This document shows, one piece after another, positions 6,372-12,716 of a stretch of 41,175 nucleotides of DNA; the first letter of the stretch is position 1, and every line of letters begins with the position of its first letter. The stretch lies in IMG/VR virus record IMGVR_UViG_3300022707_000755; one strand, given 5' to 3'. Both the position numbers and the translations under genes were made by a program. Under the pieces are notes generated by a model, which saw nothing but the letters and a program-made list of their open reading frames with translations, made no database searches and was not told the DNA's origin. This DNA comes from a virus.

Positions 6372-6536
6372 TTATTCCCCTTGTGGCTGGTTTAGTGCGG
6401 CTTCAATCATTCTTTTAACGCTCTCATAATGATGTATGTAGGTATCCATATCCGCGTGAGTTGGTAGTATTTTATCCTTCACCGCTTGTTTTACAGCAGC
6501 ATGGACCATTTCATCTGTTACTTCTGCGTTATTCAT
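6372..6536 (-). CDS. Hypothetical protein (54 aa)
   Basis: Hand translation MNNAEVTDEMVHAAVKQAVKDKILPTHADMDTY...; fills an operon gap. Confidence 0.5.
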   Translation of the reverse strand: MNNAEVTDEMVHAAVKQAVKDKILPTHADMDTYIHHYESVKRMIEAALNQPQGE

Positions 6537-6558
6537 TGTCTATCCCTTATGTGGTTAA

Positions 6559-6729
6559 TTACTTGTTATCCAGTAGCTCTAGAAGCTCTACAGATGCTGC
6601 TGATAGCTTACTTGCTAGACTTATAATGTGATCACCCGAAAGCCATCCAAGATCATGCTCAGAGCTGTCCAGTTTAATCTTAACTTCAACATATTCTGTT
6701 TGCGGTATATCTCTAATATCTATTTCCAT
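6559..6729 (-). CDS. Hypothetical protein (56 aa)
   Basis: Hand translation MEIDIRDIPQTEYVEVKIKLDSSEHDLGWL... Confidence 0.5.
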   Translation of the reverse strand: MEIDIRDIPQTEYVEVKIKLDSSEHDLGWLSGDHIISLASKLSAASVELLELLDNK

Positions 6730-7624: not shown

Positions 7625-7834
7625 TTAGTCTAATTTGTCAGGTATTGCGTTCCCCTTCATTCCATCTATATCTCTCTGGCATCTAATCCTGGCCCTAAAA
7701 TAGATCCCGAATAATCTTTGATAATACAGATAATCCTCAGACCCAGTTTTATGAGTATCCCTAAGATCTAAATGTATATCCTCCTGAAATGTCAGATATT
7801 CAAGGTCATCATGCTTTTGCTTTAGATTGTTCAT
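7625..7834 (-). CDS. Hypothetical protein
   Basis: ORF track. Confidence 0.55.
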   Translation of the reverse strand: MNNLKQKHDDLEYLTFQEDIHLDLRDTHKTGSEDYLYYQRLFGIYFRARIRCQRDIDGMKGNAIPDKLD

Positions 7835-9276: not shown

Positions 9277-9433
9277 CGTAACAGCGATTAAAACCGTAGA
9301 CCGGCCTCACACTGTTGCCTTGATTACGGCGATTGAAGAGGCTATTGAAGAGGTAGCTCTTGGTAATATGACTGCCGTAGAAATCATTGGGTGCCTGCAC
9401 ATGGTGGCCGCTAACTACCTACCTAAAGATTAA
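9269..9433 (+). CDS. Hypothetical protein (54 aa)
   Basis: Hand translation MDNVTAIKTVDRPHTVALITAIEEAIEEV...; ATG overlaps the upstream gene end. Confidence 0.5.
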   Translation: MDNVTAIKTVDRPHTVALITAIEEAIEEVALGNMTAVEIIGCLHMVAANYLPKD

Positions 9434-9443
9434 CCAACCCTTT

Positions 9444-9496
9444 AAAGCCCTTACCGTGTCACGCCTTAATTGGTTATTTCAGGGTAGGGGCTTTTT
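9444..9496 (+). terminator. Intrinsic terminator (12-bp stem AAAGCCCTTACC / GGTAGGGGCTTT, then a T-run)
   Basis: Hand-folded; followed by TTTTTAATGCCT, the same 12-mer that follows the terminator at 12441-12477. Confidence 0.7.
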
Positions 9497-9534
9497 AATG
9501 CCTGTTGAACCTGTAAGTATTTCTTACAAGTTGC

Positions 9535-9562
9535 TTGATTGTGGCCACAGATGGGTTATAGT
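9535..9562 (+). promoter_or_regulatory. Candidate sigma70-type promoter (TTGATT - 16 nt - TATAGT)
   Basis: Hexamers read directly; just downstream of a terminator and upstream of the gene at 9588. Confidence 0.5.
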
Positions 9563-9587
9563 GTGGGCACACATAAGGGAGAAGATA

Positions 9588-9740
9588 ATGAAGACAGCAA
9601 CACACGCCACAAGATCATGGCCTAGAGATCTATTTAAAATGATAGATGGTAAATGGCACACATGGTCGCAAAATAATAAATGGGTAAGGTGCCACAATGG
9701 TTTCAATACATCTAATTTAGTAAGACTAGGTGGCGGGTAG
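9588..9740 (+). CDS. Hypothetical protein (50 aa; track ORF 9387..9740 extends upstream across the terminator)
   Basis: ATG at 9588 is preceded by SD AAGGGAGA. Confidence 0.5.
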   Translation: MKTATHATRSWPRDLFKMIDGKWHTWSQNNKWVRCHNGFNTSNLVRLGGG

Positions 9741-9786
9741 GTTAGTACAGTACTAATTAACTAATAACCATTAATAAGGGGATTAC

Positions 9787-9975
9787 ATGAAAAAACTAGG
9801 TGTTAGATTTGATACTGAAAAGGTTAATAGCGATCTTGGCAGGATCGGCAAGCATACGGGCAAATCTAAGTCTGAGGTAGCTAGAACTGCTATGCAAATT
9901 GGACTGGACTGCCTTGACGGTTATTTATTAAATAGGCGTGAGATTGCCATTCAGCTTATAGAGGAGTTTAAATAA
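9787..9975 (+). CDS. Ribbon-helix-helix (Arc/CopG-like) DNA-binding protein
   Basis: N-terminal beta strand LGVRFD followed by ...SKSEVARTAMQIGLD helices; recognised by eye. Confidence 0.45.
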   Translation: MKKLGVRFDTEKVNSDLGRIGKHTGKSKSEVARTAMQIGLDCLDGYLLNRREIAIQLIEEFK

Positions 9976-10259
9976 TGCCTGACCATATCAAGCGGGACAA
10001 GATAATAGTGAGCGAATTAAAGCCATGCCCATTCTGCGGCGATACACCAAAACTTCCAAGTGGTGACGGCACTGAATACGAAATAGAATGTAATTGTGGT
10101 ATGGCCATGTCATCAGTGCAGATATGCGACCTAATGACAATTAACGAGCGGCAGTCTGATGAGTTTATTGACCATCGCTATCAAGAGGTTTTTGTCGCGA
10201 GGGCAAGAGATCAAGCTATTATCAATTGGAATAAGCGGGACAAGGAGGCGGGGAAGTAA
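9975..10259 (+). CDS. Lar-family (restriction-alleviation-like) zinc-ribbon protein
   Basis: SELKPCPFCG..(x)..YEIECNCG matches the Lar-family N-terminal zinc-ribbon pattern. Confidence 0.55.
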   Translation: MPDHIKRDKIIVSELKPCPFCGDTPKLPSGDGTEYEIECNCGMAMSSVQICDLMTINERQSDEFIDHRYQEVFVARARDQAIINWNKRDKEAGK

Positions 10260-10462
10260 TGGAATACCAAGAAGCGTGTGAAAAATTAGCCCTGATGATT
10301 ATTAAGGATAATCACGCCAGGGTGAGCTATGGCTGGCCAATTGAATACTTTCATAAGTTAATTGGTGATGGCGAAACGAATGCGATGGCCTTATCAATAG
10401 TGAAGGCAGAGGGCGGTTTTGAAGGTTACGAAGCTACGCACGATGAGAGATTCGAAGCTTAA
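10259..10462 (+). CDS. Hypothetical protein
   Basis: ORF track; TAATG coupling. Confidence 0.6.
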   Translation: MEYQEACEKLALMIIKDNHARVSYGWPIEYFHKLIGDGETNAMALSIVKAEGGFEGYEATHDERFEA

Positions 10463-11327: not shown

Positions 11328-11677
11328 TGGATATATCTACACTAAGCGATGAAGAGCTTAACAGGGCTATGATATGGATTAATCCTCCAGCTCATGGAGT
11401 TTTTACGGATGATGAATGTGGCGTGTATTCAAACTCTGTTCGTGGCCATGGTTGCAATAAGATTGACTATTTAGAAGACTGGTCATTAACTGGGCCTCTT
11501 ATGGTTAAGTATATGGGCAGTCACAGGTATGAGATTGATTTTTATCGCGACAAGGACGATGACGAATACAAAGTGGAATCACTTATCGATGATTGCTGCT
11601 ATATATTTGCAAATATAAACCCACTACGCGCCATATGTGAAGTAATTATTATGATTGAAATGGCTAATAAATCTTAA
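11327..11677 (+). CDS. DUF2591-like phage protein
   Basis: LSDEELNRAMIWI..., DYLEDWSLTGPLMVKY and NPLRAICEVI fit the DUF2591 pattern. Confidence 0.55.
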   Translation: MDISTLSDEELNRAMIWINPPAHGVFTDDECGVYSNSVRGHGCNKIDYLEDWSLTGPLMVKYMGSHRYEIDFYRDKDDDEYKVESLIDDCCYIFANINPLRAICEVIIMIEMANKS

Positions 11678-11894
11678 AGTAAATATCAGTGATATTAATC
11701 TAATAAGGTTTATTATGTAGTTGTGGTCGCGGTGGGATGCCCTATGAAATGAAGCTTAGTGCACTGAGTGGATACCCTGGCAGTCTCGGGCTATGACTGT
11801 CCGCCACAAACCTCCGTTATCACTATTCTATAGGTGTTAGAAATGTGGACTGAAACTGGGCAGTATATCCCGGTGCCAAATTAAGGGGGATTGA

Positions 11895-12017
11895 ATGCTA
11901 TTATTTCTTATTCAGTTGTCCGCATGTATCGCAGAGAAAAGTCCAGCGCCTAGAGAAGATTTACCTAGCTGGCACACCTCAAGAACCAGCCGACCCCTAC
12001 AGGTAGGCTATGGCTGA
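11895..12017 (+). CDS. Possible 40-aa lipobox peptide inside the ORF-poor locus (doubtful)
   Basis: Strong SD TTAAGGGGGAT 4 nt before the ATG; MLLFLIQLSAC has an L-S-A-C lipobox but no basic n-region; overlaps predicted RNA helices. Confidence 0.25.
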   Translation: MLLFLIQLSACIAEKSPAPREDLPSWHTSRTSRPLQVGYG

Positions 12018-12146
12018 GACAGCTTTAGGTGCAACTGCGATACTGTCGGCACCGGTAACAAATGGCAGAATGATTTATGATTCGACTGAGACAACAGTAA
12101 ATCCGTGTTCTCGTGCCGTACCACGGGAACCAATAGAGTTTATTTG

Positions 12147-12253
12147 GTAGCTATCTTACTTGGTGACGTGTGTTCTGAAAGGTTCGATTCCTTAATTTGC
12201 CTTGGTGGCCGGATAATGCTGGAGGGTTCGATTCCCCGGAGATAGCTACACCA
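12147..12253 (+). ncRNA. Non-canonical tRNA-like module: a 10-bp acceptor-like helix ending in A-CCA that encloses two T-arm-like hairpins and a D-arm-like hairpin
   Basis: GTAGCTATCT (12147-12156) pairs perfectly with AGATAGCTAC (12240-12249), followed by ACCA; T-loop hairpins at 12179-12193 and 12222-12237 each carry GGTTCGATTCC; GCC-TTGGT-GGC hairpin at 12199-12209. No cloverleaf or anticodon arm could be drawn. Confidence 0.55.
12159..12235 (+). repeat. Tandem duplication of a CTTGGTG - 15 to 17 nt - GGTTCGATTCC unit
   Basis: CTTGGTG at 12159 and 12201; GGTTCGATTCC at 12181 and 12225 (period 42-44 nt). Confidence 0.8.
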
Positions 12254-12346
12254 ATAGGCTTTAAGTCTATTAAACCATATCAATCACTTAGGAGGTGTCC
12301 GAGATTAGAAGTGTAGTACTTGAATTTGGATATTCACAAAACCTTT

Positions 12347-12378
12347 AGGCCCTTTTCATTATGACTAGGGCTTTTTTT
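12347..12378 (+). terminator. Intrinsic terminator (AGGCCC / GGGCTT stem, 15-nt loop, T7 run)
   Basis: Hand-folded. Confidence 0.6.
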
Positions 12379-12440
12379 ATATCTGGGTTATACTCAGCGC
12401 AGGTGTTTGAGATATAGTGTTTCTTTCGTCTATCCCTTAA

Positions 12441-12477
12441 AACCCTAATCTAGCTAATCACTGGATTGGGGTTTTTT
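12441..12477 (+). terminator. Intrinsic terminator (10-bp stem AACCCTAATC / GATTGGGGTT, T-run)
   Basis: Hand-folded; followed by TTTTTAATGCCT as at 9492-9503. Confidence 0.75.
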
Positions 12478-12491
12478 AATGCCTATCTATA

Positions 12492-12520
12492 TTGACTTAG
12501 TACCTATAACCATATATATT
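12492..12520 (+). promoter_or_regulatory. Candidate sigma70-type promoter (TTGACT - 17 nt - TATATT)
   Basis: Hexamers read directly; 35 nt upstream of the gene at 12555. Confidence 0.6.
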
Positions 12521-12554
12521 CAATACACATTCAGCCAATACAGGAAATAAACAA

Positions 12555-12716
12555 ATGGCACAAGATGGAAGAGTTACAGTTGTACTTGGCCCTAAGCACG
12601 ACAAGAGTTTAATCTCTGAACTAGAGGCTTATGCGCTTAAACACACAGCTGGCAATGTCACACAGGCAGCTCGCGAATTAATGGCCAAAGGTTTGGTTAA
12701 GGGGTTAAATAAATAA
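12555..12716 (+). CDS. Ribbon-helix-helix DNA-binding protein (53 aa)
   Basis: Hand translation MAQDGRVTVVLGPKHDKSLISELEAYALKHTAGNVTQAARELMAKGL...: a beta strand followed by two helices. Confidence 0.45.
   Translation: MAQDGRVTVVLGPKHDKSLISELEAYALKHTAGNVTQAARELMAKGLVKGLNK

Follow-up and report, generated by a model that had tools for sequence, protein, structure and literature searches.

A tRNA-like element with two T-arms and no anticodon in the early region of a viral genome

Results

A two-T-arm element in a gap between early genes

We analysed the IMG/VR virus record IMGVR_UViG_3300022707_000755, whose whole stretch of 41,175 bases (hereafter the window) contains a tRNA look-alike of about 105 bases that has two T-arms and no anticodon. 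Judged by its sequence, the window looks like the complete 41-kb genome of a marine P22-like podovirus: it encodes a P22-type coat protein, portal, tail accessory factor and injection protein, and its terminase is 64% identical to the terminases of Vibrio lentus phages. No integrase was found in the window. The element (12147-12253) lies within an 880-nucleotide (nt) gap, 11678-12554, between + strand early genes of the nin region. The gene upstream of the gap encodes a protein whose relatives give weak NinX matches (ninX-like), and the YqaJ exonuclease and NinG are encoded downstream. The parts of the element are as follows.

12147..12157, +: closing helix, 5' strand; GTAGCTATCT plus T12157
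12159..12165, +: CTTGGTG copy 1, an unpaired D-loop-like GG motif 5' of T-arm 1 (from sequence)
12179..12193, +: T-arm 1, AAGG / UUCGAUU / CCUU, with a 4-base-pair (bp) stem and a canonical T-loop (from sequence, fold and shuffle statistics)
12199..12209, +: D-arm-like hairpin GCC-UUGGU-GGC, which holds CTTGGTG copy 2 (12201-12207) (from sequence)
12210..12221, +: stub hairpin CGG-AUAAUG-CUG where an anticodon arm would be (from sequence; weak alone)
12219..12239, +: T-arm 2, with T-loop 12227-12233 and G12224-26 pairing with C12234-36; abuts the closing helix (from sequence and fold)
12239..12249, +: closing helix, 3' strand; G plus AGATAGCTAC

GTAGCTATCT (12147-12156) is exactly complementary to AGATAGCTAC (12240-12249), and an eleventh pair, T12157-G12239, brings the closing helix to 11 bp. 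The T-arm 11-mer GGTTCGATTCC occurs at 12181-12191 and again at 12225-12235, 44 nt further on, with CTTGGTG ahead of each copy (12159-12165 and 12201-12207) and the hairpin GCC-TTGGT-GGC at 12199-12209. ACCA (12250-12253) stands directly 3' of the closing helix, so that 17 nt (12234-12250) separate the second T-loop from the CCA, compared with 13 in a tRNA. A preliminary description of this DNA had already reported the ten perfect pairs, both 11-mers with their CTTGGTG motifs, the D-arm-like hairpin and the 17-nt spacing, and we recovered all of them at the same positions, adding the eleventh pair.

The exact 11-mer is present in only two copies in the 41,175 bases, both strands included. Dinucleotide-preserving shuffles (n = 100) contained on average 0.01 copies and never reached two, and a relaxed T-loop pattern was not enriched elsewhere in the window. 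Both T-arms (12181-12191 and 12225-12235) carry the tRNA T-arm set G53, U54, U55, C56, R57, A58 and C61. We refer to a closed two-T-arm tRNA-like design, a definition made in this analysis and not a curated family, where two T-arms lie at most 50 nt apart, a GG motif is present in the linker and a helix starts no more than 5 nt from T-arm 2. The window element has this design: its 33-nt linker between the T-arms contains UUGGU, and the 11-bp helix begins 3 nt past the second 11-mer.

The two T-arms are retained in a sister phage

Through the upstream protein we found L161, a 42-kb Logan contig from a sister phage with the same gene order and a 905-nt gap, which holds a colinear homologue of the window element. 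Identity to L161 is 85-100% in the blocks flanking the element, against 61% in the element (55% when the T-loops are left out). Within the block 12086-12131, window and L161 agree at every position of 12096-12129; the stretch that follows the element (12253-12275) is identical at 23/23 positions, and the two terminator blocks further downstream at 87-89% of aligned columns.

Each part of the element has its counterpart in L161. T-arm 1 reads AAGG/UUCGAUU/CCUU in the window and AGG/UUCAAUU/CCU in L161, while T-arm 2 reads GGG/UUCGAUU/CCC and CUUGGG/UUCGAAU/CCCGAG, respectively. The D-arm has undergone compensatory change, from GCC-UUGGU-GGC in the window to GCAG-UGGU-CUGC, and the stub hairpin CGG-AUAAUG-CUG corresponds to a 5-bp hairpin, GAAUG-GAUA-CAUUC. 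Where the window has the first copy of CTTGGTG, L161 has the hairpin GGUU-GGAU-AGCC. The closing helix is formed by GUAGCUAUCUU/GAGAUAGCUAC in the window and by GUAAGUAGU/GCUACUUAC in L161. A viral contig, L105, carries a 106-nt element of the same build, and the inner 9 bp of the closing helix are all paired, with differing sequences, in the window, L161 and L105. All four T-loops of window and L161 keep the residue set G53, U54, U55, C56, R57, A58 and C61, as do the arms of L105, and T-arm 2 has regular 5-6 bp stems in L161 and L105. The two 11-mers of L161 (GGTTCAATTCC and GGTTCGAATCC) are unlike each other, yet each still follows the RNA consensus. This favours RNA T-loops and disfavours DNA iterons or free decay.

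In L161, a tRNA (RF00005, 36.4 bits) lies 15 nt upstream of the element in the same unit (6528-6627, +), and the window lacks it. A single scan of metagenomes returned one chance match and one true relative, L165, a TARA scaffold (about 7640-7830, reverse strand). L165 keeps the hairpin with loop CCGUAC found just upstream of the window element, and at the site of the element it has a plain hairpin, GGGUAGUUAU...AUAAUUACCC, the arms of which resemble the closing helix of the window. Further upstream, L165 contains a 108-nt non-canonical tRNA-like sequence that combines one T-loop with an acceptor-like helix of 7 bp; it receives no ARAGORN or Rfam call. From the comparison of L161 and L165 we conclude that the locus holds exchangeable tRNA-like cassettes between conserved flanks. 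The L161 tRNA has an 8-nt anticodon loop (AUUAAACA), a 27-nt variable region and no ARAGORN call; it may be of a frameshift type, or just defective.

Further searches for relatives were negative. Neither 11800-12500 nor the L105 element had a BLASTN match among 50,697 phage records, and a search of viral contigs with the upstream protein gave no relatives; more distant homologues of this protein have no non-coding gap beside them. The 36 viral loci reached through the downstream 172-amino-acid protein had no double T-loop near that gene, and the sources of the downstream 69-amino-acid protein were the window and L161 only. Exact-pattern scans (TTGGTG...T-loop...TTGGTG, the conserved 3' hairpin and the conserved upstream hairpin) returned no close relative. 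Alignment of the three sequences with MAFFT and RNAalifold misaligned the arms, and the result was not used.

The ACCA falls within a longer predicted helix

The preliminary description took the closing helix and a single-stranded ACCA for an acceptor stem with discriminator and CCA. Our folding of a longer transcript, summarized below, does not bear this out.

12134..12146, +: outer helix, 5' strand; UAGAGUUUAUU, then U, then G12146; pairs with 12251-12263 in the minimum free energy (MFE) fold
12250..12253, +: ACCA, in an internal loop in the long transcript; exposed only after a cut at this place or on formation of the alternative hairpin
12251..12263, +: outer helix, 3' strand; C12251, then AAUAGGCUUUA at 12253-12263; pairs with 12134-12146
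12253..12271, +: alternative local hairpin AAUAGGCU-UUA-AGUCUAUU, 8 bp (from sequence); excludes the outer helix

In the MFE fold, 12134-12144 pairs with 12253-12263 and G12146 with C12251, which leaves the ACCA in an internal loop where A12250 and C12252 are bulged, C12251 pairs with G12146 and A12253 with U12144. The element thereby becomes the tip of a stem-loop of about 130 nt (12134-12263). The composite helix measures about 22 bp in the window; L161, with an outer helix of the same sequence, has an uninterrupted 20 bp, and L105 has an outer helix of 10 bp, an internal loop (UUG/ACCU) and a further 14 bp. L161, the closest homologue, has no ACC at the position of the window's ACCA, and the closing helices of comparable elements span 7-22 bp. 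Because the ACCA sits in an internal loop and is absent from L161, the reading as a CCA end is weak, and we consider a functional CCA end here unlikely. A 7-bp acceptor, 12151-12157 with 12239-12245, can be drawn equally well, with leader and trailer paired beyond it.

Among 32 closing helices of the wider set, ACC follows 3 (window, L105 and L091) against about 0.5 expected, although this count was made post hoc. Formation of the alternative hairpin 12253-12271 would free the ACC; the hairpin is identical in L161, and hence no covariation signal is possible. The motif GTTTATT, 5' of the closing helix, looked like a shared signal; for the window and L161, its place as the outer helix's 5' strand accounts for it. 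Scanning with this motif as anchor returned mostly unrelated tRNA D-arms, but also reached the cyanophage family described below.

The element belongs to no RNA class that we tested

As the preliminary description had expected, ARAGORN called no tRNA, and no transfer-messenger RNA (tmRNA), anywhere in the window. Rfam returned nothing at the gathering score, and RF00005, tmRNA, GOLLD (RF02032) and ROOL gave no match at E<=10 either. No cloverleaf can be drawn in which a 5-bp stem carries a 7-nt anticodon loop, the only 7-nt loops of the element being the UUCGAUU T-loops, with U at position 37. Thus, the earlier view that this is not a decoding tRNA holds. The one alignment at E<=10 to the model RF01852 of tRNA-Sec, a class with a 13-bp acceptor/T stack (18 bits, E = 1.3, threshold 47), is at chance level and takes T-arm 1 as the anticodon arm. 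Where a tRNA has a 7-bp acceptor on a 5-bp T stem, followed by discriminator and CCA, the element has an 11-bp helix that continues outward and a CCA at 17 nt.

The element shares with canonical tRNAs (RF00005, including phage tRNAs) the T-arm sequence with its invariant residues, a D-loop-like UUGGU and a helix stacking on T-arm 2 in the manner of an acceptor stem; moreover, in L161 a tRNA precedes the element within one unit, and elements like it fill tRNA slots of phage arrays. Unlike them, the window element lacks an anticodon arm and a correctly placed CCA, has two T-arms and is closed by a helix of 11 bp (more than 20 bp with the outer helix). The tRNA-like domain of tmRNA also combines an acceptor-like helix and T-arm with a reduced D region and no anticodon, but the window element has no tag reading frame, pseudoknots or G3-U70, and it is about 105 nt long rather than about 360.

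The YrlA Y RNAs offer a rod of 5' and 3' ends capped by a domain mimicking T- and D-arms; they are modified by TruB and DusA, and so mimic the elbow, and some are phage-encoded (PMC4201824). The window element differs from them in its arm order and in having two T-arms instead of one, and no GNCGAA motif was seen in it. The YrlA model RF02553 had no match at E<=10 in 11600-12600, although it worked elsewhere, hitting another locus. Neither did we find TROVE/Ro60 among the flanking genes and the open reading frames (ORFs) of at least 150 amino acids, which were scanned with Pfam or PHROGs (four with PHROGs only). With no tmRNA call or YrlA match, and no Ro60 gene among the ORFs scanned, the likeness to tmRNA and YrlA drawn in the preliminary description is one of analogy, not of membership.

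T4 species 1 and 2 (rnaC and rnaD) are likewise small non-decoding RNAs encoded with phage tRNAs, and rnaC (species 1), located within the T4 tRNA cluster, has a canonical T-arm, CCGGGTTCGAATCCCGG, at its end. They differ in having one T-arm and in lying in a real tRNA cluster, and by eye we saw no likeness beyond the T-arm. To our knowledge, neither RNA has been assigned a function. The mascRNA of MALAT1 and plant mitochondrial t-elements may be compared as acceptor/T-arm mimics able to recruit RNase P or RNase Z; however, they are eukaryotic or organellar and have a single T-arm on a 12-bp acceptor/T stack, which the helix lengths of the window do not fit.

Two T-loops in one small domain, tied to the tRNA elbow, are also characteristic of the elbow-docking module of RNase P, T-box stem I and the L1 stalk. 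This module requires AG..A and UG..A loops, with G second (PMC3664808), whereas both window loops read UUCGA. The module binds the elbow; the window has tRNA-type loops, each with a GG partner, and we therefore take the RNA to imitate elbows and not to dock them. Finally, integration scars leave extra T-arm and acceptor 3' sequences by tRNA genes (PMC9897764), but the window has neither integrase nor parent tRNA, and its element has a complementary 5' strand and compensatory conservation. The nearest analogies are the tRNA-like head of YrlA on its long stem (PMC4201824) and T4 species 1 RNA. A two-T-arm domain without an anticodon was not found in Rfam 15 or in the literature searched, and no Rfam family exists for two-T-arm elements.

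The design recurs in other phages

We scanned viral contigs for two copies of GGTTCGATTCC 20-50 nt apart and obtained at least 119 loci, so that the doubled T-arm architecture, which the preliminary description proposed to look for in other phages, recurs in many viral contigs. Among the matches listed, 77% form true 5-bp hairpins at both arms, with every one of the three outer pairs present, compared with 8.5% of controls, and 57% have TGG[TA] in the linker, compared with 23%. A closing helix no more than 5 nt from T-arm 2 was seen in 20% of these matches at a score of at least 7 (4.9% in controls) and in 7.5% at a score of at least 9, roughly 9 pairs or more (0.5% in controls). Within the same set, an ARAGORN tRNA lies within 300 nt of 73/123 hits (control 25%), and all 73 of the tRNA-adjacent hits are on the strand of the tRNA. 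A co-oriented tRNA gene within 300 nt is present for L161 and absent for the window element. The design occurs in the marine P22-like phage, in T4-like cyanophages and in many uncultured contigs.

One subfamily is found in T4-like cyanophages, including the cultured Synechococcus phage S-CREM1, where a 93-nt element occupies an unannotated gap between tRNA-Phe and tRNA-Ile with tRNA-like spacing (L305 727-819; OP535465.1 44482-44574). Its order is 7-bp acceptor, D-arm, stub hairpin, T-arm 1, UUUGGCAAU, T-arm 2. Across five distinct sequences of this subfamily, 125/125 cells are paired, with three compensatory pairs, a result that 7/500 shuffles reach. MAFFT could not align the variable linkers of the wider set, and no class-wide covariance model was therefore built. 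The tRNA array of S-CREM1 has a further unannotated gap, of 175 nt, between tRNA-Asp and tRNA-Glu.

The same pattern in contigs of bacteria and metagenome-assembled genomes (L167-L286) is mostly a whole tRNA and, 20-50 nt beyond it, a duplicated fragment with the T-arm and the 3' part of the acceptor. Extra tRNA 3' fragments beside tRNA genes are a known integration scar (PMC9897764). This arrangement is frequent in Patescibacteria and Actinomycetota.

Discussion

At the level of sequence, the comparisons establish a domain that is conserved, derives from tRNA, has two T-arms and caps a predicted long helix in a non-coding unit of its own; its transcription, processing, elbow formation and partner we infer. 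We tentatively favour, without regarding it as an even bet, a non-decoding, two-elbow tRNA-like RNA that is derived from tRNA, encoded in an early non-coding unit and acts in trans as an elbow mimic. In our model, T-arm 2 would stack on the closing helix as in a tRNA's acceptor/T minihelix, the 3-bp D-arm GCC-UUGGU-GGC and the stub hairpin would occupy the places of the D-arm and anticodon arm, and a second T-arm with its own UUGGUG partner would be inserted between the 5' strand and the D-arm. Each T-loop would dock its UUGGU, giving two T-loop/D-loop elbows and no anticodon. The RNA would be made early, and its head cut from the long helix by RNase III and/or tRNA-processing enzymes of the host. 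The stable product would then titrate or recruit a host factor that reads the tRNA elbow, candidates being RNase P, the CCA-adding enzyme, TruB/TrmA or an elbow- or acceptor-directed defence nuclease; we place far less confidence in any particular partner than in the reading itself. Of the elbow and acceptor mimic proposed in the preliminary description, the elbow half thus survives (two T-arms with GG partners, conserved in L161), while the acceptor half probably falls with the missing ACC in L161, the flanks that pair on in the window, L161 and L105, and the 7-22 bp helices.

Several observations weigh against this trans-acting RNA. The folding energy of the window element is unremarkable against shuffles (z about -1.2), and therefore the case rests on the motifs and on the comparison with relatives. 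The T-stems of the window are imperfect: T-arm 1 has 4 bp, and T-arm 2 has 3 regular pairs and bulges, with an irregular extension (CUGG/CCGG with bulges) in which 1/3 outer stem pairs is regular. The plain hairpin of L165 means that the head is dispensable for the locus. With two or three homologues only, covariation is thin, and complementarity guided the choice of closing helix in L105 and in the wider set. A cyanophage covariance model (R1, built from alignment A4) gave no window match at E<=10; it scores family members at 114-120 bits and other two-T-arm elements at 10-30 bits, like ordinary tRNAs. We conclude that the elements share a design and are not one homologous family, the design having probably arisen from tRNA genes on several occasions. 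When the proteins near 41 two-T-arm elements were clustered, no recurrent partner emerged, homing endonucleases and a phosphoesterase appearing in 3-4 loci only. Lastly, the known tRNA-targeting defence nucleases mostly cut anticodon loops, and the window RNA has none.

The strongest alternative, which we consider unlikely, is a cis-acting processing or stability element. Helix and head together would form a cleavage site that sets early transcript ends or blocks exonucleases, and the excised head would be functionless. RNase III could act in the helix of more than 20 bp, and RNase P or RNase Z/BN at the acceptor-like helix, in analogy to mascRNA, plant mitochondrial t-elements and the RNase III sites in T7 and lambda early RNAs. 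Consistent with this, the window, L161 and L105 all have the head on a composite helix of 20-24 bp, and the element sits between a possible small ORF (11895-12017) and the terminators, or, in L161, behind a tRNA in the same unit. The alternative hairpin 12253-12271 would expose a helix with a 3' ACC(A), which resembles the hairpin substrates of RNase P, and the post hoc excess of ACC behind closing helices (3/32 against about 0.5) points in the same direction. However, two T-arms are conserved where a processing signal would need no more than one; the closest homologue lacks the ACC; helices of 7-22 bp misfit the 12-bp ruler of RNase P and of the CCA-adding enzyme; and the neighbours differ between the window and L161, so that no constant cargo RNA is apparent.

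It is improbable that the element is non-functional debris of tRNA genes, whether a relic of a tRNA cluster left by duplication, deletion or recombination, an integration scar or an attP core. The bacterial double-T-loop hits, mostly a tRNA and its duplicated 3' fragment, are of this nature (PMC9897764), and the imperfect T-stems of the window, the absence of the head from L165 and the faster divergence of the element than of its flanks would agree with decay. Against it, neither an integrase nor a tRNA gene was found in the window, a 3' fragment would not supply a perfectly complementary 5' strand, and the helices change by compensation. Moreover, at about 55-60% identity, L161 would keep the full set of 14 invariant T-loop positions by chance with a probability of about 0.6^14, or roughly 1e-3.

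We give very little credence to an unusual chargeable tRNA or tRNA-like acceptor with the ACCA as its true 3' end, similar to the tRNA-like domain of tmRNA or an extreme allo-tRNA. The ACCA does follow a helix, the weak tRNA-Sec-like alignment exists, and a 7-bp acceptor (C12151-T12157 with G12239-G12245) with a paired G-1:C73 is drawable; yet there is no ARAGORN or Rfam call, no anticodon loop and no G3-U70, and the ACCA lies 4 nt further from the T-loop than it should, takes part in pairing in the long fold and does not occur in L161.

Very doubtful, too, is a module whose T-loops interlock head-to-tail on a real tRNA, or a YrlA-type partner of Ro60: two T-loops do share one domain, and a rod with a tRNA-like head is superficially Y-RNA-like (PMC4201824; PMC3664808), but both loops read UUCGA instead of the AG..A and UG..A pentaloops needed for docking (PMC3664808), RF02553 has no match at E<=10, no TROVE/Ro60 gene turned up among the ORFs of at least 150 amino acids scanned, and the YrlA order of T, acceptor-like loop and D is not seen. 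The faintest candidate is a DNA-level repeat, iterons or protein-binding sites four helical turns apart. Two identical 11-mers and two identical 7-mers do stand 42-44 bp apart, but the repeats match the tRNA T-loop consensus exactly; the L161 copies GGTTCAATTCC and GGTTCGAATCC differ while each still follows the RNA consensus, as T-loops of an RNA would and co-evolving binding sites would not; and the neighbouring tRNA genes in the wider set are all co-oriented among the matches listed. On this evidence we rejected the attP, iteron, Y RNA, tmRNA and elbow-docking readings.

Returning to the two-elbow RNA acting in trans, a broader form of it is possible, though we think it rather unlikely: phages of very different hosts would encode such RNAs, mature them with their tRNAs and direct them at machinery that reads elbows, for example as decoys for tRNA-directed defence or for processing or modification enzymes, and these RNAs would make up a recurrent convergent class. 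Mimicry of tRNA is itself already known from tmRNA, Y RNAs, mascRNA and T4 species 1 RNA. Two-T-arm loci are silently passed over by tRNA finders. If functional, the elements would be unannotated genes hidden in the gaps of phage tRNA arrays, would bear on tRNA-targeting defence and phage counter-defence, and would offer a testable handle on the purpose of non-decoding tRNA-like RNAs in phage tRNA clusters.

Other features of the gap and of two-T-arm loci

The remaining features of the gap in the window are listed here.

11678..11718, +: conserved 41-nt block with a sigma-70-like match, GTGATA-16-TATTAT (11689-11716; consensus match only); 41/41 identical in L161
12105..12131, +: hairpin with a stem of about 10 bp and loop CCGUAC, just upstream of the element (MFE fold; identical in L161, core also in L165)
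12347..12378, +: terminator-like hairpin and U-run; 53/57 bases identical in L161, with a weak Rfam alignment to a small-RNA-family terminator
12443..12477, +: second terminator-like hairpin and U-run (from sequence); 54/60 bases identical in L161

The block 11678-11718, directly after the ninX-like gene, is presumably the start of the non-coding unit, and the hairpin 12347-12378 is its likely first 3' end; our terminator scan passes over this hairpin because its loop exceeds 8 nt. The hairpin with loop CCGUAC is kept in the window, L161 and L165, although neighbouring proteins are only about 63% identical, and it could be a protein-binding or processing site.

A 40-codon ORF (11895-12017, +) lies inside the gap, with a Shine-Dalgarno-like AAGGGGG 6 nt upstream, and is absent from L161. 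Its N-terminus, MLLFLIQLSAC, resembles a lipoprotein signal with lipobox LSAC, and the ORF could be a small lipoprotein moron. The same early operon encodes, about 2 kb upstream of the element (9975-10259, +), a restriction-alleviation protein of the Lar-like kind (PF14354). Thus, the region carries anti-defence cargo.

We also noted a large phage RNA family beginning 8 nt after a tRNA gene (L066 4541-4760), which is present in L095, L107, L012, L063, L070, L076, L081, L223, L210, L254 and others. Its core consists of a T-arm, a CUCG-GUGGU-CGAG hairpin, GUCUGGUGAGAAGAGAG and a T-arm, and conserved blocks such as AACUCUGGUGAGCAAA and CCGGGAAAGACCGG follow. The family has no Rfam match at the gathering score, and its copies in the Pseudomonas phages Ebordelon and Holyagarpour are unannotated. 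In the unrelated locus L054, a closed double-T-loop element (10316-10373, -) lies about 430 nt upstream of a same-strand GOLLD match (9422-9892, -) and may belong to the variable 5' half of the GOLLD RNA. Finally, L050 (4691-4795, -) contains, inside one 9-bp helix, a clean tandem duplication of a D-arm (GCCC-AGUGGUA-GGGC), 9-nt linker and T-arm, which shows how two-elbow RNAs can arise.

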